A stretch of DNA of 63,999 bases, filler included, from Acidimicrobiia bacterium (GCA_046759765.1; 24 parts of 24 records of this genome joined end to end with filler, not necessarily neighbours in it); one strand, 5' to 3'. Shown: positions 25,924-53,834, counted from the whole stretch's first letter. The notes: generated by a model from the letters alone, not told the origin. A program made the numbers and translations.

Positions 25924-26006
25924 ATAACGCCGCTCAACGTGGCTGCCCAGCCGGCCCAGGCCAAGCCTGTCGAATTCGTCCTCAGCTCACGGTCCGTAAT
26001 TTGCAT
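25924..26006 (-). CDS. 5' end of a membrane protein, paralog of 50457-51068
   Basis: MQITDRELRTNSTGLAWAGWAATLSGV vs MRVTDRELRTSLRGLAWAGWAATLSGV. Confidence 0.7.
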
Positions 26007-26074
26007 GTCTCTCCAACTTCCCCCGAGTAAGAGTGACTCCACACCGTTCCGAAATCGTTACGCAACCTCGCCCA

Positions 26075-26107
26075 CCCGCCCAGAACTATCAGGCACATAT
26101 GCGCTCC
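26075..26107 (+). repeat. dif-like site (degenerate)
   Basis: CCCGCCCA-gaac-TATCaGGCAC-ATATGCGCTCC. Confidence 0.65.
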
Positions 26108-26161
26108 CTCAGGTAGCTGTCTGAGGGCCGCCCATCCGGGCAGAGAATTTCCTGCTAACGC

Positions 26162-26800
26162 TTATGCGGGTTCCATTCGCGCTTCAGCACGGCCGCTGAC
26201 GTAAAGCATGATGCTGACAACAAGCACCCACGGAATCGCAAGGCCCACGAAGATGAACGAAACAGGGGACAGCATCCCCACCGCCACGACTGCGCTCGCC
26301 CAAACCAACCAGACCGGAAACCGGTCGGTACGGAACGAGACCACCGCGGTCGCCCCGACGAGTACCGCAAGGCCGATGGCAACCGCACCGAACAACCATT
26401 GCGATAGGTCGAGGAGACCAGTGGCTGTCTCCACTGCGATCCCCCCACTGCTGCCAGCTCGGTCCGCCGCCGCGGGCAACGCCGAATAAACAACCGCTAT
26501 CAGAACCGCGGCCGCTACTCCGCCACCGAACGCCACCGCAGATACCCTGCCGGTCCCTCCTTCAGCGACCCGCAAGCTGCTACGGACACTGCCGGAGAAC
26601 CACAACAGAAAAGCGGCAGACAACAGCCCCAGATAGCTGCCCCAGACGACCCTGTCCGACCCTTCTTCCAGGAACGATTTGATCTCCTCAGGCGGCGGCT
26701 GGAACTCGTAATGGTTGATCAGCAATGTCCCTGCCACAAACAACACCACAAACCCGACACCCGTCAAAGGAGCCAACTGGGCCCATCTCGAAACTCTCAT
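26162..26800 (-). CDS. DUF4386-like membrane protein
   Basis: About 6 TM segments; FSGSVRSSLRVAEGGTGRVSAVAFGGG; paralog at 52553-53191. Confidence 0.8.
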   Translation of the reverse strand: MRVSRWAQLAPLTGVGFVVLFVAGTLLINHYEFQPPPEEIKSFLEEGSDRVVWGSYLGLLSAAFLLWFSGSVRSSLRVAEGGTGRVSAVAFGGGVAAAVLIAVVYSALPAAADRAGSSGGIAVETATGLLDLSQWLFGAVAIGLAVLVGATAVVSFRTDRFPVWLVWASAVVAVGMLSPVSFIFVGLAIPWVLVVSIMLYVSGRAEARMEPA

Positions 26801-26858
26801 CAGTACCTCCTGACCCGACCCCAAACATACGCCTGCTTGGTTGGTGCTCGCTTCCCGA

Positions 26859-26875
26859 CCCGCCCATATCGGCAT
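26859..26875 (+). repeat. dif-like half site
   Basis: CCCGCCCATAT-CGGCAT. Confidence 0.65.
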
Positions 26876-26949
26876 CCACTTCGAGGAGCGGGTCAGGCCA
26901 AGGTCTACGAGCTCGGGGTATGCTGCTGGTATCGAGCGAGATGAAGGAG

Positions 26950-27729
26950 ATGATGATGCTCGATCTGTCGTCTGTCGATCTTGACCTGCTGGTCGTGGCC
27001 CTTGAAGACCACTCCTACGACTCGTCGTGGTGGTTCGATCCGACAACGGGCGCGGTGGAGTACTGCTCGATCGATGAGGATTCTGAGGAGTTCGAGGCAC
27101 GAGACCTTGTGCCGGTGGAGCCCGAGGATCCGCGCGAGGCTTATCAGGACATGGTGGACTTCACCTCGTTGGTTAGCGACGCCCGGGCCAACGACTTTCT
27201 GACTCGTGCCCTTCAAGGGCGCGGGGCGTTTCGTCGCTTCAAGGACACCTTGTTCGACTATCCCGAGCTGCGCCAGGAGTGGTTTACCTTCCACGATCGA
27301 AGGATGCGGCAACGAGGAATCGAATGGTTAGCCGACCGGGAGCTCATCACCGAAGATGCAGCGCGTCGAGCGCTTACCGATCTGGGCGAAGAACCCGAGA
27401 GTGTCGGCCCGCTGGGCGCTATGAGGTTGGCCGAGCTGGCGGCGGCTGGATTACGTCACCTATATGGTGGTCGGTTGGTGCGGGTCGTGCTGTATGGGTC
27501 GCAGGCTCGAGGTGATGCCGGACCTGATTCGGATATCGACCTGCTGGTGGTACTCCGAGAGATGGAGTCATCCTGGGACGAACTGCGCCGAATGGACGAA
27601 CTCCTATGGCGGCTATCGTTCGAACACGGGGTGACCCTGTCGGCTCTTCCCGTAACCGAGGACCAGTTGGATCATGCGGGCGAGCCGGTGCTCATCGAAG
27701 CACGCTCACACGGTGTAACGGTTGAGTGA
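26950..27729 (+). CDS. UPF0158 domain fused to a minimal nucleotidyltransferase (MNT)
   Basis: YQDMVDF...ALQGRGAFRRFKD...EWF (UPF0158) + LYGSQARGDAGPDSDIDLLVV (MNT). Confidence 0.88.
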   Translation: MMMLDLSSVDLDLLVVALEDHSYDSSWWFDPTTGAVEYCSIDEDSEEFEARDLVPVEPEDPREAYQDMVDFTSLVSDARANDFLTRALQGRGAFRRFKDTLFDYPELRQEWFTFHDRRMRQRGIEWLADRELITEDAARRALTDLGEEPESVGPLGAMRLAELAAAGLRHLYGGRLVRVVLYGSQARGDAGPDSDIDLLVVLREMESSWDELRRMDELLWRLSFEHGVTLSALPVTEDQLDHAGEPVLIEARSHGVTVE

Positions 27730-28106
27730 GCGCGGTAGAGGAGGGCATGGCCCGCTGCCGAGAGGAGATCGCCGCCGCCAAGGTCCTGACCAGAGAAGGG
27801 TTCGCGGCTCAGGCGGTCAGCCGTTGCTATTACGCCGCGTTCTACGCAGCCGAAGCCGCCCTCCTTAGTCTCGGTGAGTCCAGGTCGAAACACGCTGGAC
27901 TGATCTCCGCTTTCGGCCAGCTCGCTGTCAAGCGGGAAGGCCTCGATGAACGGACCGGTCGTCTGCTGCGCTCCCTCTACGACCGCCGCAGCCACGCCGA
28001 CTACCACCTGGGCCCAGTACCTCTGCAGGAGGCTGTTCAAGCCATCGAGGACGCCGAGACCGTGGCCAACCTCATCGGCCACTGGCTTGCGCAAAGGTCT
28101 CCATAA
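27726..28106 (+). CDS. HEPN domain protein
   Basis: AVSRCYYAAFYAA, SKHAGLI, RSHADY; GTGA coupling to the MNT gene. Confidence 0.9.
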   Translation: MSAVEEGMARCREEIAAAKVLTREGFAAQAVSRCYYAAFYAAEAALLSLGESRSKHAGLISAFGQLAVKREGLDERTGRLLRSLYDRRSHADYHLGPVPLQEAVQAIEDAETVANLIGHWLAQRSP

Positions 28107-28463
28107 CGCTGACGGGACCTCACACAAACCGCTCAAGCACATACGGGCTCACTTACCTGTGACCGGGCCGCAGACCAAAAACCTGGAGCGCTATCGCACA
28201 ATTCATGCACCCGCTCCCGATCGTCCACTCCGTGTGGTGAGCAGAACTCTGAAAGTTTGTCCGGGACCAGCTGCCCCGACGCTTGCCTCCGAGGTGCCCG
28301 ATTAGGTGCCCGGAGGTGTTACTAACAACGCGATGCCACGAGAAATACCGAAGGATGTTGAACGCCCTACGGAGGCGGAACCTCAACTCCTGCTTGGACA
28401 TTCGAGCAATGACGGGGTTGGTTGCTGACGGCTGAAAGAGATTGAAAAAGACCGTTTCGTAGA

Positions 28464-28518
28464 TTGAGGGCCTAGTGCCCTACTAATGGGCGTGAGGGTT
28501 CAAATCCCTCCTCCGACA
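28464..28518 (+). repeat. Duplicated 3' half of tRNA-Leu(GAG): island attR-like end
   Basis: 55 bp identical to 13694-13748, starting at the anticodon loop. Confidence 0.9.
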
Positions 28519-31172: not shown

Positions 31173-31380
31173 NNNNNNNNNNNNNNNNNNNNNNNNNNNN
31201 NNNNNNNNNNNNNNNNTTAATTAATTAANNNNNNNNNNNNNNNNNNNNNNNNNNNNNNNNNNNNNNNNNNNNGACAGATTCCCAATGCAGTGCCTGGACG
31301 AGTGGGGCTGGCCTCAATAGCTCCAGCGTGAAGCGTGCCAGATACATCGACACGTCGGAAGGACGCCTGATGTTCCAGCC

Positions 31381-32791
31381 GGTGACGTCTTAGGTTCTCT
31401 GTAAATAGGGGTGGCCTGAGCCACCATGTCGGTGATCAAAAGGCCGACGAAGGAGGTTCAGGCCGATGAGGAGAGTATCGCCGTCTGTGCAGGTTCGCGA
31501 GGAACTGGACCGATTGCTGGCCGGGGGCACCGATGCTGAGGGGAATCTGATCTCGGAGCTGGTGGAGACGGTCACCGCGTTGGTGGTCCAGGAGCTGGTG
31601 GAAGCCGAGCAGACCGACTATCTGGGCGGCCGGGGCCGCTACCAGCGTCGGGACCCGGAGGCCGGTCAGCGGGGGTCCCGCAACGGATATTTGGAGGGGT
31701 CGATCCGCACCGCAGAAGGTTCAATTCCGGTGCGGGTGCCGCAGGTGCGGGACACGGAGCCGTTCCGCTCCACGCTGATGAGCTTCTTGGAGGGCAACTC
31801 GGAGGTGTTGGACCGTTTGGTGATGGAGATGTACGCCCGGGGCATGTCCACCCGGGACGTGGAGGATGCTTTCCGGGACGCTACTGGGGAGCCGCTGATC
31901 TCCCGCTCGGCGGTGTCGGAGATCACCGATCGGCTCTGGGAACAGTACGAGGCGTTCACCAACCGGGACCTTTCGGAGATCGACGTCGAGTACCTGTTCG
32001 TGGACGGTATCTACGAGTCGTTGCGCCGGCACGGCGCCAAAGAAGCGGTGCTGGTGGCCTGGACGATTTCCTCTGACGGCTACAAGCATCTGCTGCATCT
32101 GGCGGTGGGCAACAAGGAATCGGAGGAATGCTGGACAGAGTTCTTCCGTCACCTGATTGCCCGGGGTCTGCGGATGCCGACCACGGTCACCGGCGACGGC
32201 GCCCCGGGACTCATCAATGCCATCAAGACGGTGTTCCCCCAATCCATCCGTATCCGGTGTTGGTACCCCCGTCTGGGCAACATGCGCACCAGCTGCCTGA
32301 GGAAAGCGCAGCTGAGGTGACGGCCGAGATTCGCGCTGTTCGGGACGCTCCCACCCTGGAGTCGGCCCGGGCCCAAGCCGACCGGGTTATCAACCGCTAC
32401 CGGTCCGAGTTCCCGGCGGTGACCAAGAGCCTCACCGAGGACCTCGAGGCGTTGCTGGCCGTGCATCGAGTTCCAGTGCGGCATCGGGTGCATGTCCGCA
32501 CCACCAACCTGGTGGAACGCAGCTCCGAGGAGGAACGGCGCCGTACCAAAGTCATCCCCCGCCTCCTCGATGAGAAGTCGGCCATGAAACTGGTGTTCGC
32601 CACCCTCATCCGCTGTGCCCAACGCTGGAGCCGAGTGTCGATCAGCGACCTGGAACGCCACCAGCTCCAACTGCTCCGCCAGGAACTCGGAATCGATCCA
32701 CCGCCGACCCGGAAGGAAAACAAAGCAAAGCAAGAAACGGTCGCCGCATGAGCTCACGCCGTCCCGTTTACAGACGCCTCAGGACTTGACC
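31381..32791 (+). mobile_element. IS256 family insertion sequence
   Basis: Imperfect 25-bp terminal inverted repeats (GGTGACGTC...TCTGTAAA / TTTACAGA...GACTTGACC, 17/25 match); no target duplication seen. Confidence 0.85.
31466..32751 (+). pseudogene. IS256 transposase, frameshifted near 32291
   Basis: RNGY, MYARGMSTRDV, VDG, GDG..GL in one frame; RTTNLVER in the next; apparent 1-bp deletion. Confidence 0.88.
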
Positions 32792-33101
32792 ATGCACGAA
32801 GGCGACGTGACCGGCAATCCCGAGCGGCAGCGCGTCTACCAGGACACCCAGAAAACGGAGGGCCAAGGCCCAGCAAAGCCTTGACTCCTCCGCAGGCGTT
32901 CCAGTCTGCCAGGGTATGAAGGCCGATCCAGCAAAAATCGCCTGATGGCCCGCCACCTGACCCGCCGAACGGCACCTTGGGCGCGTTCGCCCCTTCTGTA
33001 TGTAGAGGGTCTTATATGCATGGAGGTCGATAGTCGGTGAAGTGCCTGGTAGCCCGCGACGTAGGTCGTTAGGAAAGGGCGGCTCCCAGCCCTCATCTCA
33101 G

Positions 33102-33129
33102 GTAACGCATATGTGCCGATATGCGCGGC
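33102..33129 (-). repeat. dif-like site (full)
   Basis: GCCGCGCATAT-CGGCAC-ATATGCGTTAC. Confidence 0.8.
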
Positions 33130-33150
33130 AGTGCTTCTTGTGATGACCCT

Positions 33151-33654
33151 TCAGTGTTTATGGGACTTCGGGAGTGTGTGACTGAAGTCGATGAGTTGTT
33201 TGATGTGGTGGCGAGTAAGTCCCACAGCGCGATCGGGCTTGATCAACAGGGTCGGTGAGCTGCGGTGGGCTGCCCACTGTCCAGCCAAGGCGTCCAGATC
33301 GTCATCGATCCAAGCGGTTGGGGTATCGCCCACGAAGGCGACCACATCGGGAAGCTTCCATGCAGCGCCCAGGGCCGGGCTCCGTGAGAACTCGATCACG
33401 GCCATCGGAGGTAGCTCGAGGATGGGTGCGATCAGTTGAGCGGCTTGACGTCCCCACCCGGTGGCCCACACCAACTCGTATCGTTGGTGCAGAGCGCTGA
33501 GCCAAGCGCCATGGGCCCGGTTCAGCCACACCCTGTGTTCGCCTTCGCCGGCCACCGTGTATCGACTAAAGCCCGAGGGCTTCACACCCGGCCCAAACGG
33601 GGCGAGGACCCCATCGACATCAATGAGGAGGTATGGCTTACCGCGGGACGCCAT
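33151..33654 (-). CDS. HAD domain protein (Swiss Army Knife RNA-repair-like)
   Basis: LIDVDGVL, LVWATGW, AWIDDD, VGLT. Confidence 0.85.
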   Translation of the reverse strand: MASRGKPYLLIDVDGVLAPFGPGVKPSGFSRYTVAGEGEHRVWLNRAHGAWLSALHQRYELVWATGWGRQAAQLIAPILELPPMAVIEFSRSPALGAAWKLPDVVAFVGDTPTAWIDDDLDALAGQWAAHRSSPTLLIKPDRAVGLTRHHIKQLIDFSHTLPKSHKH

Positions 33655-33896
33655 GAGGAAGCGAGCGTACTTCTATGCAAGCTCACCACCGTCACAGCAG
33701 CTATCTGTGTTCGCTCGATAAGGCCCGCCCCTATCAGCCTTGTCGTACCACGCGATCCTTACCTGCCTCGGTGAACCCGCAATGTATACGGCCGTGNNNN
33801 NNNNNNNNNNNNNNNNNNNNNNNNNNNNNNNNNNNNNNNNTTAATTAATTAANNNNNNNNNNNNNNNNNNNNNNNNNNNNNNNNNNNNNNNNNNNN

Positions 33897-34172
33897 GGGC
33901 AAGGAGATGGCCGAACACGCCACCTTCACCATCGACACCGGAGTGCAGATCTACTTCTGCGACCCCAAGAGTCCCTGGCAGCGAGGCAGCAACGAGAACA
34001 CCAACGGCCTGCTCCGCCAATACCTCCCCAAAAAGACCGACATGGCTGTCCTCACCCAGGCTCAACTCGACGCTATCGCTCACTCCCCCAACACCCGGCC
34101 TCGACAAACCCTCGAATGGGAGACACCATTACGAGTACTCGCCCGGGCGTTGCAATGACCCCTTGAGACCGC
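33897..34172 (+). mobile_element. IS30 family element, 3' end (transposase C-terminus to 34158 and right end)
   Basis: [42 protein letters not shown]. Confidence 0.92.
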
Positions 34173-34393
34173 ACCCATTCTCGAGTGAGAACGCCCGAAC
34201 CACCTGCCCGCACCGAACGGCACATCGGCGCTCTTACATCGGTCCGTTTCTCGGAGGCAATCGGGCCGCACCGAATGCCGGTTATCGCGCAGTCAAGTGG
34301 GCGGATGGCTGGTGCGCCTGTGGGCGATCTGGACGCGGTGGATCCGACACCCGGGGCTGTCGGATGCTAGCTCCGGGGTAATCTCTAGCACCG

Positions 34394-39487: not shown

Positions 39488-39593
39488 CGCGGACAGCTCT
39501 CTGAGCAGGATCTGTAAGACAGCCACACTAGGTAGGTATAAGCCGACCACCACACCCTGCCACGTCCGTAGCGGTTCCTGCGACTCCGGCGTA

Positions 39594-46693: not shown

Positions 46694-46878
46694 NNNNNNN
46701 NNNNNNNNNNNNNNNNNNNNNNNNNNNNNNNNNNNNNTTAATTAATTAANNNNNNNNNNNNNNNNNNNNNNNNNNNNNNNNNNNNNNNNNNNNCTCACAC
46801 CAGCTGGCTGCCCTGAGCTTGCCGCTCAGTTACGTCACAACAACCTCCCTCGCTGTCATGGCGCCCAAACTCCTGGGC

Positions 46879-46905
46879 GCACCGCATAAGTGCCGATTGG
46901 GCGGG
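46879..46905 (-). repeat. dif-like site
   Basis: CCCGCCCAAT-CGGCAC-TTATGCGGTGC. Confidence 0.7.
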
Positions 46906-46946
46906 TCTGAGCGGCCTCAATGTGGGTCGCGAGAGCTGTTTGGTGG

Positions 46947-48497
46947 TTAATCCTCGATCAGGCGCTCGAGGGTGTCTTCGTCGTCTTGTTCCAGGGCGAG
47001 TTCGGCGCGGAGGTTGTCCTGGTCTCGGTTGATCGAAGCCACAGCCATGATCCGCTGGTCCTCGCGGTAGCCGATAGTTGCGTCGCGGGCAGCTGTGTTG
47101 CCTGAGATATCGGCTACGTTCCAGTCCTCGGTGTGGCCGACGTAGTTGATGCGCACGTCGTAATGCTCGCTCCAGAAGAACGGCACCTCGGTGTATGGGA
47201 TCCCACGGCCGAGGATGTTGCGCGCTGCTGCTTGGCCTTGACGCTGGGCCACGACCCAATGTTCAACCCGGATATGGTGATCTAGGCGGCGGTCCGGGTA
47301 TCGGGCGATGTCACCGGCTGCCCAAATAGCCGGGTCGCTAGTCCTTAGGTATTCGTCGACGACGACACCGTTGTCGACTTCTAGACCTGCGGTCTCGCCC
47401 AGCGTGGTGTTGGGACGGACCCCCACGCCGATCACCACCAGGTCAGCGGCGACCTCAGAGCCGCTGTCGAGAACCACGATCCTGTCGTCGATCGAATTTG
47501 CGGTGTGCCCGAGGTGGAACCGAACTCCGTGTTCCTCATGGAGAGACTGGAGAAGCTGTCCGACTGCACTTCCCAGCACCGGCTCCATCAGAACGTGCTC
47601 GGGCGCAACCACATGCACTTCGATCTCTCGTTGGCGCAGTGACGCAGCCACTTCCAGACCTATGAAGCTGGCACCCAGGACTACTGCCGACGCTGCCCCT
47701 TCCGCACTGGCGATGATTGCTCGGCTGTCGGCCAACGTACGGAGGTAGTGGACATGAGGCATATCCCCCCCGGGAAGGCCGAGGCGGATTGGATCTGCAC
47801 CGGTGGCCAGCAGCAACGCCCCGTATCTCATCCTGGAGCCGTCGGCCATTCGAACGGACCGGCGCGCCGCATCGACAGCCGTCACCTTTGTACCGAGCTG
47901 CAGATCCACATTGTGTTCCTCGTAGAAGCTCTCCGACCGCAGAGGCATCCACTCCTCGGGAGCCTTCCCGGCCAGGTAGTCCTTGGAGAGGTTGGGACGA
48001 TCGGTGGGAACCGTTTCCTCGTCACTGATCATCGTGACCCGTCCACGGTATCCTTCGTCTCGCAGCGTCTCCACCGCCGCTGCGGCAGCGGCGCCCGCAC
48101 CGATCACTACAACAGAGTCCGGTGGATCATTGATGGGCAGCGGAGTCCAATCGGACTCGATCTGCTCTCCAACGTAGAGACGCCCGTCCCGCTCCTCGAC
48201 TTCGAAACAGGGCAGCGGATTCAGGGCAGGAGCCCGTACGGCCCGGCCCGTGCGAACGTCGAAACAGGCATGGTGCCATGGACACCGCAGCAGCTCACCA
48301 TCGAAAAGGCCCTCCCCGACCGGGCCGCCGTAGTGGGTACAACGGCCGCTCACTCCGAACACGTCGCCTCCGGTCCGGGCCAGCACAACAGGCTTGTCGT
48401 CGGCATAGCCCAGCACCATCTCACCCTCAGCTACACCACTGGCGGGTACGCCCTCATTCCTCAAATCGGGTCCGGTCAGCGGCGCCTGCTCGCCCAC
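46947..48497 (-). CDS. Rieske 2Fe-2S + FAD-dependent oxidoreductase (AIF-like)
   Basis: CTHYG...CPWH Rieske motifs; GAGAA, LLATG, GASFIGLE, AAGD, PFFWS. Confidence 0.93.
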   Translation of the reverse strand: MGEQAPLTGPDLRNEGVPASGVAEGEMVLGYADDKPVVLARTGGDVFGVSGRCTHYGGPVGEGLFDGELLRCPWHHACFDVRTGRAVRAPALNPLPCFEVEERDGRLYVGEQIESDWTPLPINDPPDSVVVIGAGAAAAAAVETLRDEGYRGRVTMISDEETVPTDRPNLSKDYLAGKAPEEWMPLRSESFYEEHNVDLQLGTKVTAVDAARRSVRMADGSRMRYGALLLATGADPIRLGLPGGDMPHVHYLRTLADSRAIIASAEGAASAVVLGASFIGLEVAASLRQREIEVHVVAPEHVLMEPVLGSAVGQLLQSLHEEHGVRFHLGHTANSIDDRIVVLDSGSEVAADLVVIGVGVRPNTTLGETAGLEVDNGVVVDEYLRTSDPAIWAAGDIARYPDRRLDHHIRVEHWVVAQRQGQAAARNILGRGIPYTEVPFFWSEHYDVRINYVGHTEDWNVADISGNTAARDATIGYREDQRIMAVASINRDQDNLRAELALEQDDEDTLERLIED

Positions 48498-48691
48498 TCA
48501 CACCATCCTCAGTAGGCCCCGCCGCACCCTAACGAACACCCCGGTCCCGATTCTCGAGGATTCCACAGCGAAGAACACCAAGCCCTCTGTTGTCAACGGC
48601 TGCCATCAGACAGCGCGATCGCAAGCGCAGCCCCGAAGATCTTTCACTTCTGAGCCTGAACCTGACGCGCATGCCTCAGCCACCGATCCAG

Positions 48692-48708
48692 GTAGCGCAT
48701 ATGTGCTG
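48692..48708 (-). repeat. dif-like half site
   Basis: CAGCAC-ATATGCGCTAC. Confidence 0.65.
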
Positions 48709-48794
48709 CCGGTTTCAGTACGACGAGGCCGTCGGAATGGTGTCATGGCGGCGCTTCGCTGTCTGCCGGAGTACGTTTCGGGTTGGAGGTTCAG

Positions 48795-49237
48795 GTGCCC
48801 TCACTTCCCACCGGCACAGTCACGTTCCTGTTCACCGACATCGAAGGATCAACGCGGCTGTGGGAGGAACACCCTGAGGGGATGAAGGCGGCGTTGGCCC
48901 GTCACGACGAGATCCTGCGATTGGCAATTGAGGACCACGGCGGCTACGTGTTCTCGACAGCTGGGGATGCTTTCTCGGCTTCCTTCCACAGGGCGCAGGA
49001 TGCGGTAGGTGCAGCCCTTGCTGCCCAGGAGGTGTTGGTGGCTGAGGATTGGGGTGATCTGGCTATCGGGGTGCGGATGGGTCTTCATACCGGTGAGGCT
49101 GACGAGCGGGACGGTGACTACTTCGGGTCGGCCGTGAACCGGACCGCCCGTCTACTGTCGGCAGGGCATGGCGGCCAGGTGCTGGTGTCTCGCAGCATGC
49201 GGGAGATAGTGGAGCACCAACTCGCCGATGATGTGGG
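48795..49237 (+). CDS. Adenylate/guanylate cyclase domain protein (3' truncated)
   Basis: TFLFTDIEGST, GDAF, RMGLHTGE, YFGSAVNRTARL. Confidence 0.92.
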
Positions 49238-49339
49238 NNNNNNNNNNNNNNNNNNNNNNNNNNNNNNNNNNNNNNNNNNNNTTAATTAATTAANNNNNNN
49301 NNNNNNNNNNNNNNNNNNNNNNNNNNNNNNNNNNNNNAT

Positions 49340-49462
49340 GAGCTCGGACCTCCCCCTAGCGATGAGCTTCTCGAACTCGTTGCTCTGGTGGCGCGACGTC
49401 GCCGGCAACGCGAAGAACTCGAACGTCAACAACCAGGCATCGGACTCGCCCTAGGCCGGTAG
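49340..49462 (+). CDS. MobF relaxase extreme C-terminus (paralog of 51880-52296)
   Basis: LGPPPSDELLELVA...ELERQQPGIGLALGR* matches the relaxase end in contig 20. Confidence 0.7.
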   Translation, partial: ELGPPPSDELLELVALVARRRRQREELERQQPGIGLALGR

Positions 49463-49489
49463 TCAAACCACAGAGGGTGGCTTACGAAT

Positions 49490-49517
49490 CAGCGAGAGAA
49501 TGCCGGTTATGGGCGTT
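49490..49517 (-). repeat. dif-like site, relaxase-adjacent type
   Basis: AACGCCCATAA-CCGGCA-TTCTCTCGCTG. Confidence 0.7.
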
Positions 49518-49547
49518 GGTCGCGAGCGAGCCGTATCGAGACGTTGA

Positions 49548-50051
49548 TCATTCAGTGACCGTGAAATCCCCTCCGAAGTGCGTGATCCTTTCCTCGATGA
49601 GGGCACAAGTCACAACGTGGACACCCGGCGGGAAGTGCCGTGTCGCCTCAAACGATTCCCCTGCCGGGAGACCTTGTCTGTAAAACGTCGGGTGAATTTC
49701 TGATGTCGGTTCCGCGGAGGGGTTCTCTGCAAGAGCGTCTGCAACTTCCTGGGCGGTTATGCCCTCGTCGAGCCGCCACAACCCGAGGGTGCTGCTCCCT
49801 GGACTCTCATTGTGCAGCACGATGTCTATGTTGCCCGCCGACAGTTCACTAGGCCCTTCATAAGTGCAGTTCTCGCCATCGAAGGTCACTTGTAGAACAA
49901 CAGGCGCAGAGGTTGTGGTCGTTTCTTGAACTGCCGTTGTGATCGTCGTTTCTTCTACCGTCGTTGTTGTGGTGTCTTCTGTCGTCCCATCAGAACAAGC
50001 GGCCAAGCCCAAGCCGAGGAGGATGCCACTAGCAACCAGACGTTTCTTCAT
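49548..50051 (-). CDS. Lipoprotein with Thr-rich linker and cupredoxin-like beta domain
   Basis: LAAC lipobox, TTTTT linker, VTFDGENCTYEGP...PPGVHVVTC. Confidence 0.8.
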   Translation of the reverse strand: MKKRLVASGILLGLGLAACSDGTTEDTTTTTVEETTITTAVQETTTTSAPVVLQVTFDGENCTYEGPSELSAGNIDIVLHNESPGSSTLGLWRLDEGITAQEVADALAENPSAEPTSEIHPTFYRQGLPAGESFEATRHFPPGVHVVTCALIEERITHFGGDFTVTE

Positions 50052-50084
50052 CGGCAGCGACCCTACCCTTTCCCAACATCGACG

Positions 50085-50112
50085 GCCGAACATATCGACA
50101 CATACGCGCTAC
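50085..50112 (+). repeat. dif-like site (variant)
   Basis: GCCGAACATAT-CGACAC-ATACGCGCTAC. Confidence 0.7.
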
Positions 50113-50432
50113 CCCGGGAGCTAGCCATAGCCGGTGGATCGGAATGTCGGATTACGGACATCCCGGTCTGCCAAGCACGTGCAGCAGTGTTGGTAGAAGT
50201 GAGGTGATCGATAATGAGCTGCAAGATCATCGTTCGTGAGGGTCGCCAGCTTCGTATCCACATCGGACATGTGATCTCCTGGGGCCCCGACACGGTTCAC
50301 CTGCTCATTACCAGTCCCCAAGACCGCGCCGGACAGACCGAGATCATCGATCTCTCAAGGATTGTCAAGTACGAGCGTCTGGCAGCCTGACGCCGCCCAC
50401 CGCGCTCAGAGGACAATGCAGCAGGACAGTCA

Positions 50433-50460
50433 CCCGCCCATATCGGCACATATGCGCTAG
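50433..50460 (+). repeat. dif-like site (full, consensus-like)
   Basis: CCCGCCCATAT-CGGCAC-ATATGCGCTAG; right arm overlaps the stop codon of the adjacent gene. Confidence 0.85.
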
Positions 50461-51068
50461 TCGGGGATCGTGGAGGGCTGTTTTCTCGGGGCGCGGATTA
50501 GGAGGATTCCGATTGCTATCCAGGTCAGCCCGAATGCGAAGGAAATCAGGGTGCCCTGCAGCCAGGGAAACGCTGTGAACAGCCCAAGACTGAGGGGGAT
50601 TCCTGATCCCCGAGGTAGGAGACCGACCAGGAGGGCTCTCCGTCCGTAGACGATCGTGGCCACTGCCCCAAGAGCTGGCCCCAAAGCAGTAAGGGCTGCG
50701 CCTGGAAATGAGATCGAGAGGGTGGTAGAACCCCACACGGTCAATCCCAGCGTCCACACGATTCCGATAGCGGCTCCTGTCCAGCCCACTATCGCTGCGT
50801 ACCGGCTGAGGGTGGCCACCCAACCGTGGCCAACTCGAACCAGTGCGAGGGCTAGCACGATCAGGGCAAGTGCGATCACTAGAGAGCGGGTGGAGTCGTA
50901 CCAGGAGAGCCCTAGGGGTGTCCGTTGGTAATCGAAAGAGGTGGTTCCGTGCGCAGCCAGGTAGTGGACCCATACCACCAACCAAATAACACCGCTCAAC
51001 GTGGCTGCCCAGCCGGCCCAGGCCAAACCTCTCAAACTCGTTCGCAGCTCGCGGTCCGTGACTCGCAT
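50457..51068 (-). CDS. Hypothetical multi-pass membrane protein
   Basis: About 6 TM segments; GGAG RBS; paralog start at 25924-26006. Confidence 0.75.
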   Translation of the reverse strand: MRVTDRELRTSLRGLAWAGWAATLSGVIWLVVWVHYLAAHGTTSFDYQRTPLGLSWYDSTRSLVIALALIVLALALVRVGHGWVATLSRYAAIVGWTGAAIGIVWTLGLTVWGSTTLSISFPGAALTALGPALGAVATIVYGRRALLVGLLPRGSGIPLSLGLFTAFPWLQGTLISFAFGLTWIAIGILLIRAPRKQPSTIPD

Positions 51069-51134
51069 GTCTCTCCAGCTGCCCGAGTAAGAGTAACTCC
51101 ACACCGTTCCGAAATCGTTACGCAACCTCACCCA

Positions 51135-51151
51135 CCCGCCCATATCGGCAC
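51135..51151 (+). repeat. dif-like half site
   Basis: CCCGCCCATAT-CGGCAC. Confidence 0.75.
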
Positions 51152-51304
51152 GTCGAGGATTGGGGTGGCATTGGCGGGAGCCACTCAGTGTGGCGGTCAA
51201 GACGGGCCGGGACCGAAGCGTTCGTCCAGTTGCTGCAGGGACCCGACTTCGCAGTGCGGTCGGGAGGAAGTGGGCTGTGATGCAGCCCGTTAGCCTCGAG
51301 ACCG

Positions 51305-51779
51305 ATGGGGTACGAGTCGCTGGGGCGGGTTCTCGCGGAGATGGCGGCAGACGATCAGGACCGTGCCGACATGGCGGAGGCAGTAGCCGATTGGCTCACC
51401 GCCGGCGAGGGGACGGAGACGATCGACCTCGCCAGCGTACAACGCTTTGTGTGGTACGAGCTGCCCGTGAAATGGATGGGGAACGGGGGTCTGCGCCGGC
51501 GGACGCTCGAGGCGGCCGCTGAGCTCTTCGACCGGCTCGGCATGGCTCGCTACGCGGAAGTGTGCCGCAGCCCGGTGACCTCCGAGATCCACCACGCCTA
51601 CGTCGAATCTCAGGAGAAGGGCATCAAGGCGTTTCAACGGGCGAACCGTCGCTCAGGCATCGATCCGCCCGATCTGGACAACTTTGTATGGGGCGACGTG
51701 ATGGGTCTTGAGGAGGCCGTCGCACGCCGCGCCGCCGAGCGGGCGCTGGAGGAGGCGATGACGGTGGGTCGGTTTGCCC
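51305..51779 (+). CDS. Hypothetical protein (3' truncated)
   Basis: Protein-like ORF (VQRFVWYELPVKW...SGIDPPD). Confidence 0.7.
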
Positions 51780-51879
51780 NNNNNNNNNNNNNNNNNNNNN
51801 NNNNNNNNNNNNNNNNNNNNNNNTTAATTAATTAANNNNNNNNNNNNNNNNNNNNNNNNNNNNNNNNNNNNNNNNNNNN

Positions 51880-52296
51880 GCCCTCACCGGCCACAAAGCC
51901 CAAGGCATCACCACCGGCCGCACCTTCACCGTCCTCGGCGGAACGGCAGACCGGGAATGGACCTATGTCGCGTTGAGCCGCGGCCGCCAAACCAACACCC
52001 TCTACCTCGACATCCCCCAACCCGACCAGCAACCATGCGTCCATGTCACCCATACGCCACCGAAGCACGGTCTCGATGGTCTCTCTGCCTCCCTGGGCCG
52101 AAGCGCAGCCCAAACCGCCGCTATCGACCACCTCGAAGGAGGGAGACCGTCGGTCACTGCTGAAATCGACACGCTCGGACCTCCCCCACCCAGCGACGAG
52201 CTCCTCGAACTCGTCGCCATGGTCACCCGACGCCGCGATCAACGCCACGAACTCGAACGTCAGCAACCAGGGATCGCGCTGGGCATCGGACGATAG
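51880..52296 (+). CDS. MobF/TrwC relaxase-helicase C-terminus (5' truncated)
   Basis: ALTGHKAQGIT and TYVALSRGRQTN (SF1B helicase motifs V/VI). Confidence 0.85.
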   Translation, partial: ALTGHKAQGITTGRTFTVLGGTADREWTYVALSRGRQTNTLYLDIPQPDQQPCVHVTHTPPKHGLDGLSASLGRSAAQTAAIDHLEGGRPSVTAEIDTLGPPPPSDELLELVAMVTRRRDQRHELERQQPGIALGIGR

Positions 52297-52323
52297 TCAG
52301 ACCACAAAGGGTGGCTTACGGAT

Positions 52324-52351
52324 CAGCGAGATAATGCCGGTTACTGAGCGG
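52324..52351 (-). repeat. dif-like site, relaxase-adjacent type
   Basis: CCGCTCAGTAA-CCGGCA-TTATCTCGCTG. Confidence 0.7.
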
Positions 52352-52552
52352 GTGATGGGACGCTTTGAAAGCTCAGGCCGCGCGCGTTATGTGCGCGCCC
52401 ACGCAACGCGCTCCACAGCGTCCAGTTCGGCGAGAGGGAGTCTGTAATCAACCTCATTTCCTGTCAACGTACCGAGATGATCGCGTCGTCTATCGCAGGG
52501 AAACTGAACATCCTCCGCGGGAAGTCGCGAAGACCGGATTCCGCTAAACGCC

Positions 52553-53191
52553 CTAGCTCTCCACCGTGCTGCCTACCCGGCGTATCAGCACGATGCTGAG
52601 GGCAGCGACCCAGAAGAGAGCGATCGCCAAACCAAACCCGAAAATGGGGTATTGCGGCACCAACGACAGAGCTGCTCCCACTGCACCGACCCAGGCCAAC
52701 CACCGGGGAATCGCCCGATGCCGCAAGGCGATGACGAAGGTGGCTCCCATCAGAAGCGCCATCGCGAAGGCTGTAGCAACGCCCATCGTCGACTCTGCGA
52801 GGCTCGCAGCCAAGCGGGCACCTTCCGAGTCATCTTGGCGTCGGACAAACTCGGCCGCAGTCCTTGTCAGCGCCGAAGACACCAGGATGGTCACCCCTGC
52901 CATCACCCCGCCTGCGAAAGCAACTGCAGATAGACGACCGGTTCCCCCCTCCGCCTGACGCAGCGTGCTACGCAAGCTGCCAGCGAACCACACCAGTGCC
53001 AAGGCCGCCAAGGTACCGGCAGCGACGCTAACCAGCGCGCGGGCCTGGTTGTCGTCCAGCTTCTCTGCCACCACCGAGGCCTCGTCGGCTAGCGCGTCGA
53101 CCACCGGATTGACGACACCAGCAACTACGACGAGCACCACGAAAACGAGCCCGGTTCCCGCCGCCAGGCGCTCCCACTTTGATTGGGCCAT
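52553..53191 (-). CDS. DUF4386-like membrane protein
   Basis: FAGSLRSTLRQAEGGTGRLSAVAFAGG; paralog of 26162-26800; AGGAGG RBS. Confidence 0.8.
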   Translation of the reverse strand: MAQSKWERLAAGTGLVFVVLVVVAGVVNPVVDALADEASVVAEKLDDNQARALVSVAAGTLAALALVWFAGSLRSTLRQAEGGTGRLSAVAFAGGVMAGVTILVSSALTRTAAEFVRRQDDSEGARLAASLAESTMGVATAFAMALLMGATFVIALRHRAIPRWLAWVGAVGAALSLVPQYPIFGFGLAIALFWVAALSIVLIRRVGSTVES

Positions 53192-53362
53192 GTCTTCACC
53201 TCCTGAGATGATTATGGCTCGGGATCCGAGCCGATGTCACTGGGAAGGCGGGCCAGCGATCAGATCACCCGTTCTGAGCGATATCGCCCCTCACCACCAG
53301 GAGCGCATAGCGGCACATCATGTGTGCACGGGTTGGCGGACCTGTGCTCGCCGCGGCCGCGC

Positions 53363-53749
53363 CTAGCCCATATCGGGAGGGCCCCCCTCGAGCGCACGGG
53401 CATCGACGTCTTGACCGAACCGCACGACTATCGCTTGTATCGGCTCCGGACCCTCAGCGATCTCGCGATGTGACACACCGGCCCGAACCACGCCGAAGTC
53501 GCCCTTGGACGCTGTCACCGATTTCATCGGATCGCTGCCGTACTCGACGCGCAGGCTTCCCGACATCATGAAGAACACGGTCGTCTCCGAGCCGTGATGA
53601 TGCCATTCACTCTCCTCACCGGACTCCATGGACGAGATGCCCGCTGAAAGTCCGGGTTCGCTGATCGCGTACTTCCTCCGAACCGCTGACGGCCCACTCT
53701 CCGCAGAGAGATCTGATCCCGACGCAATGCGTACATGATCAAGTGACAT
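53363..53749 (-). CDS. Cupin domain protein
   Basis: WHHHGSETTVFFMMSG...GVSHRE; AGGAGG RBS. Confidence 0.85.
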   Translation of the reverse strand: MSLDHVRIASGSDLSAESGPSAVRRKYAISEPGLSAGISSMESGEESEWHHHGSETTVFFMMSGSLRVEYGSDPMKSVTASKGDFGVVRAGVSHREIAEGPEPIQAIVVRFGQDVDARALEGGPPDMG

Positions 53750-53834
53750 CCAGCCTCCTGAGTTACCCGCTCCCAAAGCTCACGCTACCTGCCCATTATC
53801 GGCACCTCGGAGCTCGGCGGGAGAAGGCGGTTGG

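Follow-up and report, generated by a model that had tools for sequence, protein, structure and literature searches.

The sites analysed here share features with integron attC sites, REP/REPIN sequences, and the dif and pdif sites of Xer recombination. An attC site comprises two inverted simple sites, each an arm pair around a 6-nt spacer, and carries AAC/GTT triplets; the IS1111-attC group consists of elements specific for such sites. The signature of repetitive extragenic palindromes (REPs) is GT[AG]G with a palindrome after it; a RAYT gene usually has REPs of its own on both sides, and in other bacteria REPs serve as targets of IS110-family elements. Many dif-like sites per chromosome would be dangerous if host Xer/FtsK acted freely on them, which counts against a dif-type reading. 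REPIN populations have been described as lineage-specific and vertically inherited. The Acinetobacter dif and pdif sites presented in PMC6449649 have arms with conserved inner and variable outer bases.

We analysed a 63,999-nucleotide stretch from an Acidimicrobiia bacterium (the window), which consists of 24 contigs of 2.1-2.9 kb, linked by spacers of N44 + TTAATTAATTAA + N44. The contigs referred to in an earlier note are therefore real units, and long-range order is unreadable from the window. That note had reported an 11-6-11 motif on at least seven contigs and none in housekeeping contigs, and both points hold; its full or near-full copies are found at the coordinates it gave (Table 1): sites occur on 25924-28518, 31273-33796, 33897-36399, 39089-41565, 46794-49237, 49338-51779 and 51880-54314, and the other window contigs contain no core-template match with five or fewer mismatches. 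The half copies it listed also proved to be such, with left arm plus spacer at 26859 and 51135 and the right arm at 48692(-). At three or fewer mismatches to the consensus, the 28-bp site (S1) is found three times in the window versus never in 100 dinucleotide shuffles; for 22-nt core templates, window and shuffle counts are 3 vs 0 (≤3 mismatches), 4 vs 0.17 (≤4), 6 vs 0.93 (≤5) and 10 vs 4.0 (≤6). The strong S1 copies are far above chance, and the weakest copies listed earlier are, judged on sequence alone, indistinguishable from it. Because related genomes place them in the accessory sub-site types P and S3, the weaker copies at 34207, 35145, 35505, 36180, 53300, 53788 and 28294-28310(-) are non-random; the last was absent from the earlier list.

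S1 has the form CCCGCCC or GTAGCGC + ATAT-CGGCAC-ATATGCGCTAC, in which arms of two interchangeable kinds (CCCGCCCATAT or GTAGCGCATAT) flank the asymmetric spacer CGGCAC. The consensus over 122 sites is (A)CCCGCCC or GTAGCGC, then ATATCGGCACATATGCGCTA[C/G]CTG, with inner arm bases conserved and outer bases variable. Of the S1 copies, about 40% have an inverted partner with the spacer TGCCGG (S2) ~17-20 nt downstream, and in many cases the 28-bp site makes up just one half of a longer S1-S2 element; the earlier note missed this composite, as well as the accessory sub-sites and a site-specific IS110 element. The two spacers are inverted in 48/48 doublets, and S2 remnants follow the window S1 copies at 26075, 33102 and 39594. 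Some boundaries carry further dyad sub-sites, which may have a role of their own: P, a 20-bp perfect palindrome (TCTGRGCGATATCGCCC), and S3 (GAGTGCTCGTGAT-CGGCAC) before S1, and an S4-like site after S2. No Rfam family matches the sites.

Table 1. Boundary sites and associated features in the window
Feature	Position	Strand	Remarks
S1	26075-26107	+	Two small insertions: CCCGCCCA-gaac-TATC-a-GGCAC-ATATGCGCTCC
Linker hairpin and S2 left-arm remnant GCCGCCCAT	26108-26147		Directly after S1 26075
S1 left arm and spacer only, CCCGCCCATATCGGCA	26859-26875	+	Unrelated sequence follows
P/S3-kind variant boundary element	28280-28330	-	TTTCTCGTGGCATCGCG ... GGCAC..GGCACCTCGGAGG; weak by sequence; near tRNA-Leu 3' fragment
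tRNA-Leu 3' part copy, 59 nt	28460-28518	+	98% to 13662-13750; contig end
S1 GCCGCGCATATCGGCACATATGCGTTAC	33102-33129	-	1 mismatch to 22-nt core; degenerate S2 arm after; between HAD-family gene (33151-33654, -) and small ORFs
Variant composite	34207-34290	+	Between rve-type transposase end and GDSL hydrolase gene; S1-like half CCCGCACCGAA-CGGCAC-ATCGGCGCT (34207-34234), S2-like half GGGCCGCACCGAA-TGCCGG-TTATCGCGC (34263-34290); CATAT -> CCGAA/CCGAT in parallel in all four arms
P-like box and variant site GGCGAGCAGAT-CGGCAC-ATCTAGGGCAG	35121-35172	+	After GDSL gene (34394-35062); box 35121-35137 with 3 mismatches
S3-type site GGTGCTCGTGAC-CGGCAC-CTCGGCGCTCGC	35501-35532	+	2 mismatches to S3 template; adjoins SRPBCC gene stop (35556-36008, -)
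P-like box TTCTGCTTCGATATCGCCC and S3-like site CCGCTCGTGAT-TGGCAC-CTCGAGGGCGG	36150-36207	+	Upstream of SRPBCC gene
S1 ACCGCCAATATCGGCACATATGCGCTGC	39594-39621	+	1 mismatch to core
S2 left half GCCGCCCATATTG	39641-39654	+	Partner of S1 39594; spacer cut by IS110 element
IS110-family insertion sequence	39655-40949	-	In S2 spacer, TG^CCGG; transposase 39847-40896
S2 right half CCGGTTAAGGGCTGGG	40950-40965	+	Interrupted by IS110 element
S1, one base deleted, CCCGCCCA-ATCGGCACTTATGCGGTGC	46879-46905	-	Just downstream of Rieske/FAD reductase gene (46947-48497, -)
S1 right half ..CAGCAC-ATATGCGCTACCTG	48692-48719	-	Upstream of Rieske/FAD reductase gene
S2/S4-type half site GCGAGAGAA-TGCCGG-TTATGGGCG	49490-49517	+	Homology to 52170-52350 (81%) stops here
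S1 variant GCCGAACATAT-CGACAC-ATACGCGCTAC	50085-50112	+	4 mismatches to 22-nt core template; 34 nt upstream of lipoprotein gene (49548-50051, -)
S1, best window copy	50433-50460	+	0 mismatches to core, 1 to the earlier note's consensus; between 58-codon ORF (50214-50390, +) and membrane-protein gene (50457-51066, -), whose stop codon overlaps its final 3 bases
S1 left arm and spacer CCCGCCCATATCGGCAC, unrelated right arm	51135-51162	+	Upstream of membrane-protein gene
Perfect P box TCTGAGCGATATCGCCC	53273-53289	+	17/17 match
Variant site GGAGCGCATAG-CGGCAC-ATCATGTGTGC	53300-53327	+	With P box 53273-53289, between DUF4386 (52553-53191, -) and cupin (53363-53776, -) genes
Variant site CCTGCCCATTAT-CGGCAC-CTCGGAGCTC	53788-53815	+	Between cupin and SnoaL (53835-54314, -) genes

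Arm kinds are C-G 108, G-G 45 and C-C 2 in S1, and G-G 33, C-G 16, C-C 5 and G-C 4 in S2; such free assortment is expected if arms are swapped at the spacer. That both arms look like one kind of half-site, with interchangeable kinds, accords with a single recombinase more than with a XerC/XerD pair. The composite (73 nt) forms a ~30-bp hairpin, in which both arms have single-base bulges and the variable loop measures 9-12 nt, and as ssDNA either strand folds with -25 to -31 kcal/mol (z of -4.8 to -6.2); a single S1 folds no better than shuffles (z +0.9). In the covariation analysis, the long hairpin is 86.8% paired versus 86.0% for two local palindromes, and 18/500 shuffles reach the score. 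The proposed likeness to dif survives in the architecture and the left arm: against the predicted Frankia alni dif (PMC3025954), S1 has 13/28 identities (left arm 8/11, spacer 1/6, right arm 4/11), and by this comparison the likeness is architectural and, with respect to a real actinobacterial dif, modest. The analogy with pdif fails on orientation, since pdif modules are inverted whereas the arrays here are direct.

Related copies were retrieved with an exact 17-mer from the site, which yielded at least about 120 further copies in at least 20 species-level MAG assemblies, of which at least 12 carry an Actinomycetota or Acidimicrobiia label. Among the matches listed, three contigs of 0.31-2.7 Mb hold two exact matches each, 2-9 kb apart (617 bp were examined in each Mb-scale contig). 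When the window and all non-chance loci are taken together, 160 S1 and 61 S2 sites have three or fewer mismatches. Neighbouring units are co-oriented in 59/65 cases (median gap 861 bp), 111 of 123 site centres fall outside ORF interiors, versus 77% of bases inside ORFs (p ~4e-56), and 45/58 inter-site segments contain exactly one ORF of at least 90 aa, which bears out the intergenic, single-gene accessory cassettes of the earlier note. For instance, locus L010 has 11 site positions over 13.6 kb, all on the plus strand, and each of its 10 intervals contains one substantial ORF; in the window the co-oriented sites at 46879 and 48692 bracket a single Rieske/FAD reductase gene.

Within arrays, every intergenic gap holds a site, divergent promoter gaps included, and convergent, divergent and tandem gaps are occupied alike. 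Rather than being spread evenly beside core genes, sites number ~1 per 0.9 kb in arrays versus 0 in ~42 kb of core-gene flanks (L060, L021, L028, L037); the L060 mini-array has a G+C content of 60% against a background of 66-68%. Gene and site share a strand in 32 cases and lie on opposite strands in 31, so that the cassettes must bring their own expression signals. Many of the cargo genes are unknowns; small enzymes and an MNT/HEPN pair are also encoded. A near-unchanged S1 core precedes a cassette gene family of only 46% protein identity in L010 and in two MAG contigs that carry an Acidimicrobiia label (L081 and L111, of 95 kb and 2.7 Mb), which suggests selection on the site.

Contigs lose their homology to one another at the sites. 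In matches of at least 85% identity (each contig pair entered in both directions), 36/45 internal ends are no more than 40 bp from a site centre, against an average of 5.3 and at most 11 when 45 ends are placed at random; the cassettes have therefore been reshuffled at the sites, as the earlier note had supposed. In the alignments, the left flank is accompanied by the left arm and the right flank by the outer right arm, which places the exchange inside the core. Within the window, 25924-26082 and 50986-51142 are 87-97% identical and diverge after CGGCAC, and 49338-49513 and 52170-52350 break at TGCCGGTTA. Homology at the site is lost on one side only and does not resume after an inserted repeat; the 95-kb and 2.7-Mb contigs share their right flank at 98.7% and differ left of the site. 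Among the loci compared, we found no case of a cassette that is cleanly present between two sites in one locus and missing from another.

An IS110-family element lies exactly in the S2 spacer at two independent loci. The window transposase has a Pfam match and reaches 161.6 bits with NCBIfam transpos_IS110 (cut-off 140), and L051 carries a 72% identical transposase at the same position in another S2 site. The tRNA-Leu copy at 28460-28518, where no whole tRNA was found, probably represents the distal att repeat of an island that has integrated at tRNA-Leu.

We favour, with some confidence though well short of certainty, a reading in which the sites serve as the crossover points of a system for site-specific recombination, by which single-gene cassettes are stored and reshuffled in chromosomal islands of Acidimicrobiia and related Actinomycetota. 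A full-text literature search found no published description of such a cassette system, in agreement with the earlier note. Of the integron-analogous, tyrosine-recombinase-driven array proposed there, the co-oriented, reshuffled cassettes stand; the recombinase is inferred, as none is linked to the arrays. The search for xerC, xerD, intI or another recombinase came back empty in the 280 ORFs of site-bearing contigs, which fits a trans-acting enzyme. Two integrases were rejected as Xer or IntI: they adjoin tRNA-Val and score far below the respective cut-offs (54 and 21 bits versus 265 for integron integrases).

The main rival, which we regard as unlikely, takes S1 and S2 as REPs and the composite as a REPIN, copied as ssDNA by a RAYT (Y1/HUH) transposase with a single gene copy at another place in the genome; the cassettes would be variable-island genes with colonised gaps, and the breaks would mark repeats as recombination hot spots. 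The inverted doublets and the IS110 targeting of S2 agree with this, and the gene-direction independence could come from insertion tied to replication direction. The strong composite hairpin and the G-type arms, which read GTAG + CGCATAT.., are REP/REPIN hallmarks that count against an Xer-type reading. However, no Y1_Tnp/RAYT match, and hence no REP/IS200-type transposase association, appears among the same 280 ORFs; the sites are clustered, are absent from the ~42 kb of core flank and fill every gap inside arrays; homology is lost on one side; the exact core is common to at least 12 Actinomycetota-labelled species assemblies; and single S1 sites, although the majority, do not fold beyond chance.

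Less probable again is a true integron relative, in which S1-linker-S2 would be the counterpart of attC and a dedicated integrase, encoded at the head of each array and outside the pieces analysed, would recombine the folded strand. The composite parallels attC in its inverted simple sites, bulged bases and variable loop, and co-oriented ~0.9-kb units, integron-kind cargo and an IS110-family element reminiscent of the IS1111-attC group point the same way. Yet intI is missing from every locus, the sites have no AAC/GTT triplets, ~60% of S1 copies have no S2 partner, gene directions are equally split, covariation gives the long hairpin no preference, and three array ends (L021, L037, L028) adjoin ordinary genes instead of an integrase.

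We consider it very improbable that the sites are operators, terminators, or nucleoid or replication-related DNA enriched in accessory islands: the sites are perfect or near-perfect intergenic dyads, and the P palindrome is of a kind bound by dimeric regulators, but the stems have no T-run after them, the sites keep no fixed relation to gene direction such as a transcription-factor operator would have, their orientation tracks the array (59/65), and between-contig homology breaks at them. Chimeric joins at repeats, which would make the arrays and the reshuffling products of metagenome assembly and to which we give equally little credence, might be suspected from the mostly short-read MEGAHIT or SPAdes metagenome contigs, contig ends often near sites and unreliable bins (L010 and L050 agree at 99.9% over 4071 bp and yet bear the labels Kiloniellaceae and Gammaproteobacteria, respectively), but the 28-75 bp repeat is shorter than k = 141 (inferred from 'k141_' contig names) and than typical reads, arrays recur across independent studies and assemblers, three long contigs hold paired exact matches, the 95-kb and 2.7-Mb contigs are alike on one side of the site only, and the pattern holds between the two MFD09779 Acidimicrobiia MAG contigs.

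Under the cassette-recombination reading, the system is probably integron-like and driven by a trans-acting recombinase of the tyrosine (Xer-like) kind, a class argued from the architecture of the site. This enzyme, encoded elsewhere in the genome, would bind both arms of the site, as duplex or folded single strand, and exchange strands inside the 6-bp spacer or at its borders. Recombination of two direct sites would excise a circle comprising a gene and one site, and the reverse reaction would insert the circle at any site; repeated rounds would yield arrays of co-oriented one-gene units, together with hybrid arms and residual half sites. Such an arrangement would work like an integron built from different parts.

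The 24 contigs of the window (2.1-2.9 kb each, sorted by length, with joiners of N44 + TTAATTAATTAA + N44) are separate portions of a fragmented metagenome-assembled genome of ~60% G+C. Their order is uninformative, so arrays were judged only within one contig or in related genomes. Genes were called with a longest-ORF/GC3 heuristic, and taxon labels are used as given in the records. An earlier note had proposed that dif/Xer-like 28-bp sites delimit single-gene accessory cassettes, and its six full or near-full copies were all recovered in place. At up to three mismatches from its 28-mer, the window holds three matches, against none in 100 shuffles. With 22-nt core templates, the counts in window and shuffles were 3 versus 0 at up to three mismatches, then 4 versus 0.17, 6 versus 0.93 and, at up to six, 10 versus 4.0. 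These comparisons indicate that the strong copies are real; the weakest, on sequence alone, are indistinguishable from chance. The sites fall on seven contigs, as the note had it, and the remaining contigs contain none at up to five mismatches from the 22-nt core templates. The genes named beside the sites were also borne out by Pfam (DUF4386, cupin, SnoaL, GDSL, SRPBCC, HAD-like, Rieske/FAD reductase and an MNT-HEPN pair), which identified mobile-element genes on the same contigs as well, namely IS256-type and rve-type transposase fragments and an IS110-family transposase.

To find related loci, we searched an assembly collection with the exact 17-mer ATATCGGCACATATGCG, retrieving 10-kb flanks, and obtained at least 152 stretches (at least 131 loci). 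By our own estimate, ~70 chance matches are expected for a 17-mer in ~1.2e12 positions; ~22 singleton loci from unrelated taxa, without the flanking arm bases, were excluded as chance or unrelated. Among the matches listed, 122 distinct sites were left, and their likeness extends well beyond the 17-mer, with a left arm beginning CCCGCCC (~60) or GTAGCGC (~23) and a right side reading GCGCTA[C/G]CTG. These sites derive from at least 20 species-representative assemblies, labelled, among the matches listed, as Acidimicrobiia or Acidimicrobiaceae (9), Actinomycetota (3) and other groups (8: Gammaproteobacteria 2, Kiloniellales 3, Gemmatimonadota 2 and Armatimonadetes 1). Little confidence can be placed in the non-actinobacterial labels. 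For instance, positions 1-4071 of locus L010, labelled Kiloniellaceae, are 99.9% identical over 4071 bp to L050, labelled Gammaproteobacteria, and L113 (Armatimonadetes) equals L127 (Acidimicrobiia) at 99.5%. Similarly, the array of L060, the sole long contig (119.6 kb) in a 'Kiloniellales' bin, has PASTA, DUF222 and lipB-lipA-sucB genes as neighbours, which we take to point to Actinomycetota. Cassette arrays seem to have been scattered into wrong bins. Dozens of short array contigs occur in one 'Gammaproteobacteria' bin. Three contigs of 0.31-2.7 Mb (two Acidimicrobiia, one Actinomycetota) carry at least two exact matches each, 2-9 kb apart, with 617 bp examined around each. Matches on Acidimicrobiia/Actinomycetota contigs that were covered over 617 bp include those in CAWBVU010000006.1 (around 226-230 kb), CAVWBO010000007.1 (around 625-635 kb), CAVOXF010000005.1 (around 8-12 kb) and CAWBVU010000002.1 (around 92 kb).

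The basic unit, S1, has the consensus [CCCGCCC or GTAGCGC]ATAT-CGGCAC-ATATGCGCTA[C/G]CTG, its arms being of a C type (CCCGCCC) or a G type (GTAGCGC). Most S1 copies are single 28-bp sites without a partner. In 48 cases among the loci listed, a second site, S2, with the consensus G[A/C]GC[G/C]CATAT-TGCCGG-[A/T]TATG[C/G]GC.., follows 17-20 nt after S1, in inverted orientation in 48/48 and always in the order S1 to S2 (46 aligned). C- and G-type arms assort freely on both sides of S1 and of S2. Offset by one base, the spacer bases TGCCG of S2 exactly complement CGGCA of S1, which makes the 73-nt composite of S1, linker and S2 an imperfect palindrome. As single-stranded DNA, either strand of the composite forms a ~30-bp stem, each arm of which has a single bulged base, and a variable loop of 9-12 nt (-25 to -31 kcal/mol, z -4.8 to -6.2); a lone S1 folds no better than shuffles. 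Across the 46 composites, the paired fraction is 86.8% in a long-hairpin model and 86.0% in a model of two local palindromes; covariation is weak, its score being reached by 18/500 shuffles, and does not tell the two models apart.

Further sub-sites accompany S1 and S2 at some boundaries. A palindromic box (P), a dyad sub-site (S3), S1 and S2 stand in that fixed order at 13-14 of ~160 boundaries in the loci listed, and the row can span ~190 nt. P (TCTGRGCGATATCGCCCAGA = TCTGGGCGATATCGCCCAGA) is a perfect 20-bp palindrome, S3 reads GAGTGCTCGTGAT-CGGCAC-RTATTGAGCGG upstream of S1, and an S4-like site (GCGCGAACAGAA-TGCCGG) can come after S2. The window copies previously described as weak are of the P, S3, S4-like and variant kinds. 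Half sites are also present, as a left arm with spacer or as a right arm alone. In L060, two opposed S1 sites lie back-to-back exactly where the orientation of its mini-array switches, a possible inversion or head-to-head junction. Rfam returned only two tRNAs for the whole window at gathering thresholds and only one chance-level lncRNA match for four site-rich loci in E-value mode, so the sites are not explained by a known RNA family. An 88-nt composite, compared by BLAST with PLSDB plasmids and INPHARED phages, had chance-level partial matches only (E ~0.7-0.8). A sigma-54-type promoter reading of GGCAC-N5-GC was rejected: its spacing is unsuitable, and gene direction bears no relation to the sites.

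Locations of sites, arrays and accompanying genes in the window and in related loci (L numbers)
Feature	Location	Description
P and S3 before S1, or S4-like site after S2	L131 229-320; L038; L066; L020; L060 12121-12164; window 53273-53289	
S1'-S2' pair	window 34207-34290	four arms altered in parallel
Opposed S1 sites	L060 9366-9410	share one arm: GCTAGCGCATAT-CGGCAC-ATATGCGCATAT-GTGTCG-ATTGGGCGGG
Contig with four genes	window 49338-51779	three gaps, one site per gap, every site in + orientation
Contigs with gaps between genes likewise filled by sites	window 33897-36399; window 51880-54314	
Cyclase cassettes	L011, L014, L031, L041, L058, L099, L105; window 48783-49235	
First pair with one-sided likeness	window 25924-26082 and 50986-51142	87-97% alike up to CGGCAC, then unrelated
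Second pair with one-sided likeness	window 49338-49513 and 52170-52350	81% alike up to TGCCGGTTA
IS110-family element	window 39655-40949	~1.3 kb; splits S2 in spacer TG^CCGG: GCCGCCCATATTG, IS, CCGGTTAAGGGC
Transposase of this element	window 39847-40896 (-)	DEDD; NF033542, 161.6 bits against a cut-off of 140
Related IS110-family element	L051 2808-4176	transposase 72% identical; same S2 spacer point, independent locus
tRNA-Val, tyrosine integrase and array	L014 872-4245	integrase adjoins tRNA-Val, then DUF3631 gene, then S2-cassette-S2-cassette-S1
tRNA-Val(TAC) and tyrosine integrase	window 3111-4692 (contig 2964-5812)	38% identity to the L014 pair
Intact tRNA-Leu(GAG)	window 13662-13750	
tRNA-Leu(GAG) 3' copy	window 28460-28518	59 nt, 98%; ends site-bearing contig 25924-28518; matches 13690-13748
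MNT nucleotidyltransferase fused to UPF0158 domain, with HEPN gene	window 26725-28106	toxin-antitoxin-type module on site-bearing contig
Truncated IS256 (Mutator-type) transposase	window 31466-32320	on site-bearing contig
rve-type transposase, C-terminal end	window 33898-34158	on site-bearing contig
rve-type transposases at two array starts	window 33898-34155; L010 1-831	unrelated to each other; ordinary IS3-type elements
Large serine recombinase	window 98-1756 (-)	Resolvase, Recombinase and zinc ribbon, 552 aa; site-free contig, not linked to arrays in the sequences examined
84-nt tandem repeats	window 11218-11553	inside long ORF 8846-11671 with MG2 domain; repetitive surface or coiled-coil-like protein
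Small Rieske subunit, then molybdopterin oxidoreductase with Rieske_3 domain	window 54417-56808	site-free contig; resembles arsenite-oxidase-type pair

The arrangement of these sites is that of an array. L010 (13.6 kb), for example, has 11 site positions, all on the plus strand, and 10/10 intervals hold one substantial ORF on either strand. Taking the non-chance loci among the matches listed together with the window, neighbouring units are co-oriented in 59/65. For the loci listed and the window, the gap between neighbouring units has a median of 861 bp (range 90-4098), and 111/123 site centres lie outside ORF interiors, though these make up 77% of the bases. On the same basis, the proposal of single-gene accessory cassettes is supported: out of 58 inter-site segments, 45 contain exactly one ORF of at least 90 aa, six contain two, four none, and three contain three or four. 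Gene strand and site orientation agree in 32 cases and are opposed in 31 (loci listed and window), which leaves no sign of the fixed tie to transcription that the earlier note had considered under an operator reading. Nor was an even spread beside core genes, the other distribution it had considered, seen in the ~42 kb of core-gene flanks covered (L060 outside 8.0-12.2 kb, L021, L028 and L037), which contain no site at up to four mismatches. Together, these data describe sites that occur in clusters, show polarity at array level and bear no relation to the direction of transcription. G+C is 60% in the L060 mini-array against a background of 66-68%, and GC skew along this contig shows no switch there.

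The cargo is accessory in character, comprising SnoaL, SRPBCC and glyoxalase proteins, alpha/beta hydrolases, sulfatases, methyltransferases, peroxiredoxins, a PF00144 serine hydrolase, MFS with TetR, DUF4386, DUF998, and WD40, TPR and pentapeptide proteins; about half has no Pfam match. When 361 ORFs were clustered all-against-all, adenylate/guanylate cyclases were the only sizeable recurrent family, with nine ORFs on eight contigs. Toxin-antitoxin-type modules, such as the MNT-HEPN pair, are common in cassette arrays.

Evidence that the flanked genes are reshuffled at the sites, the absence of which the earlier note had named as counting against it, comes from the points where homology ends. 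In an all-against-all BLAST of loci and window contigs (at least 85% identity and 140 bp, pairs counted both ways, chance loci and one duplicate locus excluded), 36 of the 45 internal match ends fall no more than 40 bp from a site centre, and 40 no more than 100 bp. When ends were placed at random in these sequences, a mean of 5.3, and at most 11 in 200 trials, came within 40 bp. Where the left flank is shared, the left arm and the whole core are shared too, and divergence starts at the outer right arm, whose bases already differ in L015/L048, L030/L059, L079/L123 and L060/L129; in L035/L051 the fifth spacer base differs as well. Where the right flank is shared, it is the left arm that differs (L081/L111). 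This arm-by-arm pattern puts the point of exchange within the core, which is what strand exchange at a short central region would produce. Two pairs of window segments likewise lose their likeness on one side. In one cassette gene family with 46% protein identity, an almost unchanged S1 core precedes the gene at a similar distance in L010 and in L081 and L111 (Acidimicrobiia-labelled MAG contigs), which argues that constraint on the site is much stronger than on its neighbours. In the limited set of loci, no two contigs with both flanks in common differed cleanly by one cassette.

In the sequences examined, the arrays have no linked recombinase. The 280 ORFs of site-bearing contigs (74 in the window and 206 in related loci) include no integron integrase, and none is a Y1 transposase of the REP/IS200 type whose association the earlier note had listed as contrary evidence. 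A Phage_integrase gene was found in the site-bearing window contigs and the 206 related ORFs only in L014, and array heads may lie outside these sequences; no xer gene was detected in the window or related-locus DNA. A search of both for a Frankia-type dif gave one match with seven mismatches, taken as chance. The integrases of L014 and the window, each next to a tRNA-Val gene, score 21 and 54 bits against the TIGR02249 integron-integrase cut-off of 265 and far below Xer cut-offs too, and are therefore read as island integrases. The arrays may ride on, or abut, an integrative element. Islands that integrate at a tRNA gene classically leave a copy of its 3' part behind, and the tRNA-Leu fragment, taken with the tRNA-Val integrases, suggests a location in tRNA-integrated islands for at least some arrays. 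Ordinary genes adjoin three array ends (L021, L028 and L037). Candidates for a hidden recombinase were sought among recurrent unknown proteins and rejected: ORFs of 401 and 402 aa (L060 and L041) are unrelated to each other, and the clustering of 361 ORFs yielded no sizeable family other than the cyclases. IS3-type elements occur at the start of the L010/L050 array.

On balance, we think it likely that the sites serve site-specific recombination by a trans-acting, probably tyrosine, recombinase, which may be a host Xer or a dedicated enzyme. S1 would then be the core site for a recombinase dimer, with two 11-nt arms whose inner parts are palindromic and conserved, and an asymmetric 6-bp centre that would set polarity. 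Circles would be excised between direct sites in the manner of integrons and could re-insert at any site, with catalysis supplied in trans. Such exchange fits the direct arrays, one gene per unit, the exchange point inside the core, the free assortment of arms and the lack of a linked enzyme. Since the two arms do not differ in kind, one Xer-like enzyme would be likelier than a XerC/XerD pair. More speculatively, the S1-S2 composite and the P and S3 sub-sites may add direction or control, or permit a folded-strand pathway.

The site may also have its own parasite. An IS110-family element interrupts S2 within its spacer in the window, and in L051 a relative with a 72% identical transposase splits another S2 at that point; L020 and L055 may hold additional copies, as flank homology suggests. 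The element's long non-coding part, of ~190 nt, is downstream of its transposase gene, as in IS1111-type elements, which encode their guide RNA there. We propose, tentatively and stopping short of calling it probable, an Actinomycetota gene-capture platform in which self-expressed single-gene cassettes, held in chromosomal or island arrays, are exchanged within and between species at dif-like S1/S2 sites with accessory P/S3, by an unlinked and perhaps host Xer-type recombinase; composites may fold, and a dedicated RNA-guided IS110 lineage would parasitise the site.

Alternatively, the sites could be a REPIN/RAYT repeat family, which we regard as unlikely. A GT[AG]G head is a REP criterion, and the sites share with REP, BIME and REPIN sequences the form of short imperfect intergenic palindromes, with one arm kind headed by GTAG, inverted doublets able to form long hairpins, and targeting by IS110-family elements. 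However, they are clustered rather than genome-wide in the flanks seen, they fill every array gap, divergent gaps included, the loss of homology at them is one-sided, their core is common to many species, and no RAYT was found among the 280 ORFs on site-bearing contigs, although a RAYT gene typically has copies of its repeats on both sides.

A true integron relative acting on folded strands is, in our view, an improbable reading. The composite fits it, since two inverted simple sites foldable into a bulged hairpin recall attC, and the likeness extends to co-oriented arrays of mostly single-gene cassettes (~0.5-3 kb), to accessory and often unknown cargo with a toxin-antitoxin pair, and to a dedicated element of the IS110/IS1111 type that inserts at the site. 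Where no integrase adjoins them, the arrays resemble CALIN elements as described in PMC4889954, which also reports all the Actinobacteria genomes examined there, and likewise Firmicutes, to be without complete integrons. Unlike integrons, the loci examined here, outside which array heads may lie, lack both intI and attI; AAC/GTT core triplets are missing from the consensus of 46 composites, the arms are 11 nt long and of the dif kind, and the majority of sites, being lone 28-bp S1 copies, are left unaccounted for. Genes also point in either direction with equal frequency, which excludes a common promoter of the kind from which integron cassettes are expressed.

That the sites are operators or terminators is very doubtful, and so is an assembly artefact, these readings being contradicted by the orientation data, the breakpoints and the recurrence of the sites across assemblers and Mb-scale contigs.

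Returning to recombination in trans, the XerC/XerD-dependent dif modules are a close comparison for the site itself, and in these the orientation of sites alternates. PMC6449649 describes Acinetobacter dif and pdif sites as 28-bp, 11-6-11 sequences whose inner arm parts are conserved and palindromic and whose outer parts vary, and modules with inverted flanking sites, mainly on plasmids. The present sites have the same layout and palindromic conserved inner arms, bracket small accessory modules found in varied contexts, and belong to modules that encode no recombinase. Site-specific IS elements target Acinetobacter pdif sites, according to PMC10132070, just as IS elements target the sites here. 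The C-type arm matches the predicted dif of Frankia alni (PMC3025954) at 8/11 positions and the whole S1 at 13/28. In contrast to pdif modules, 59/65 neighbours are direct and lie in chromosomal islands, with inversion only within the S1-S2 pair; the two arms do not divide into a XerC and a XerD arm but belong to one kind, the extra P, S3 and S4-like sub-sites are present, and PLSDB plasmids gave no match above chance level. The system thus works like an integron and its site resembles dif/pdif, and it is a member of neither family, as intI, the attC core, a common gene orientation and inverted flanking sites are all lacking in the loci examined.

Two further comparisons are instructive. IMEX elements (CTX, TLC and the gonococcal island) have no integrase of their own and integrate at the single chromosomal dif near the terminus; serial integration at a dif-type site would leave direct arrays with hybrid and degenerate arms, much like those described here. 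The present arrays, by contrast, are several and separate, some apparently inside tRNA-linked islands, S1 differs from a predicted actinobacterial dif at 15/28 positions, and each unit is one gene, not a phage or an island. In the cer/psi accessory sequences, Tn3-family res and Tn4430 IRS, a crossover site is joined by accessory sites that impose direction, and the ordered dyad row of P, S3, S1 and S2 may be analogous; no resolvase or transposon context is seen here, however, and P/S3 occur at only 13-14 of ~160 boundaries.

Integrons are the textbook device for gene capture and reshuffling, and to our knowledge modules that depend on Xer have been described almost exclusively on Acinetobacter plasmids; a full-text literature search returned no description of such arrays in Actinomycetota. 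If our reading is correct, the cassette arrays of Acidimicrobiia, recovered in MAG assemblies of several independent projects, would represent the same solution evolved from different parts: single genes in a row, a recombination site between each and the next, and an enzyme that acts in trans. This would explain part of the strain-level variability and assembly fragmentation of Acidimicrobiia genomes, as well as the misbinning of array contigs, and the 17-22-nt core would provide a sequence handle to recover the accessory gene pool of an uncultured group. The system also offers a compact natural family of recombination sites and a site-specific RNA-guided IS110 element for study.
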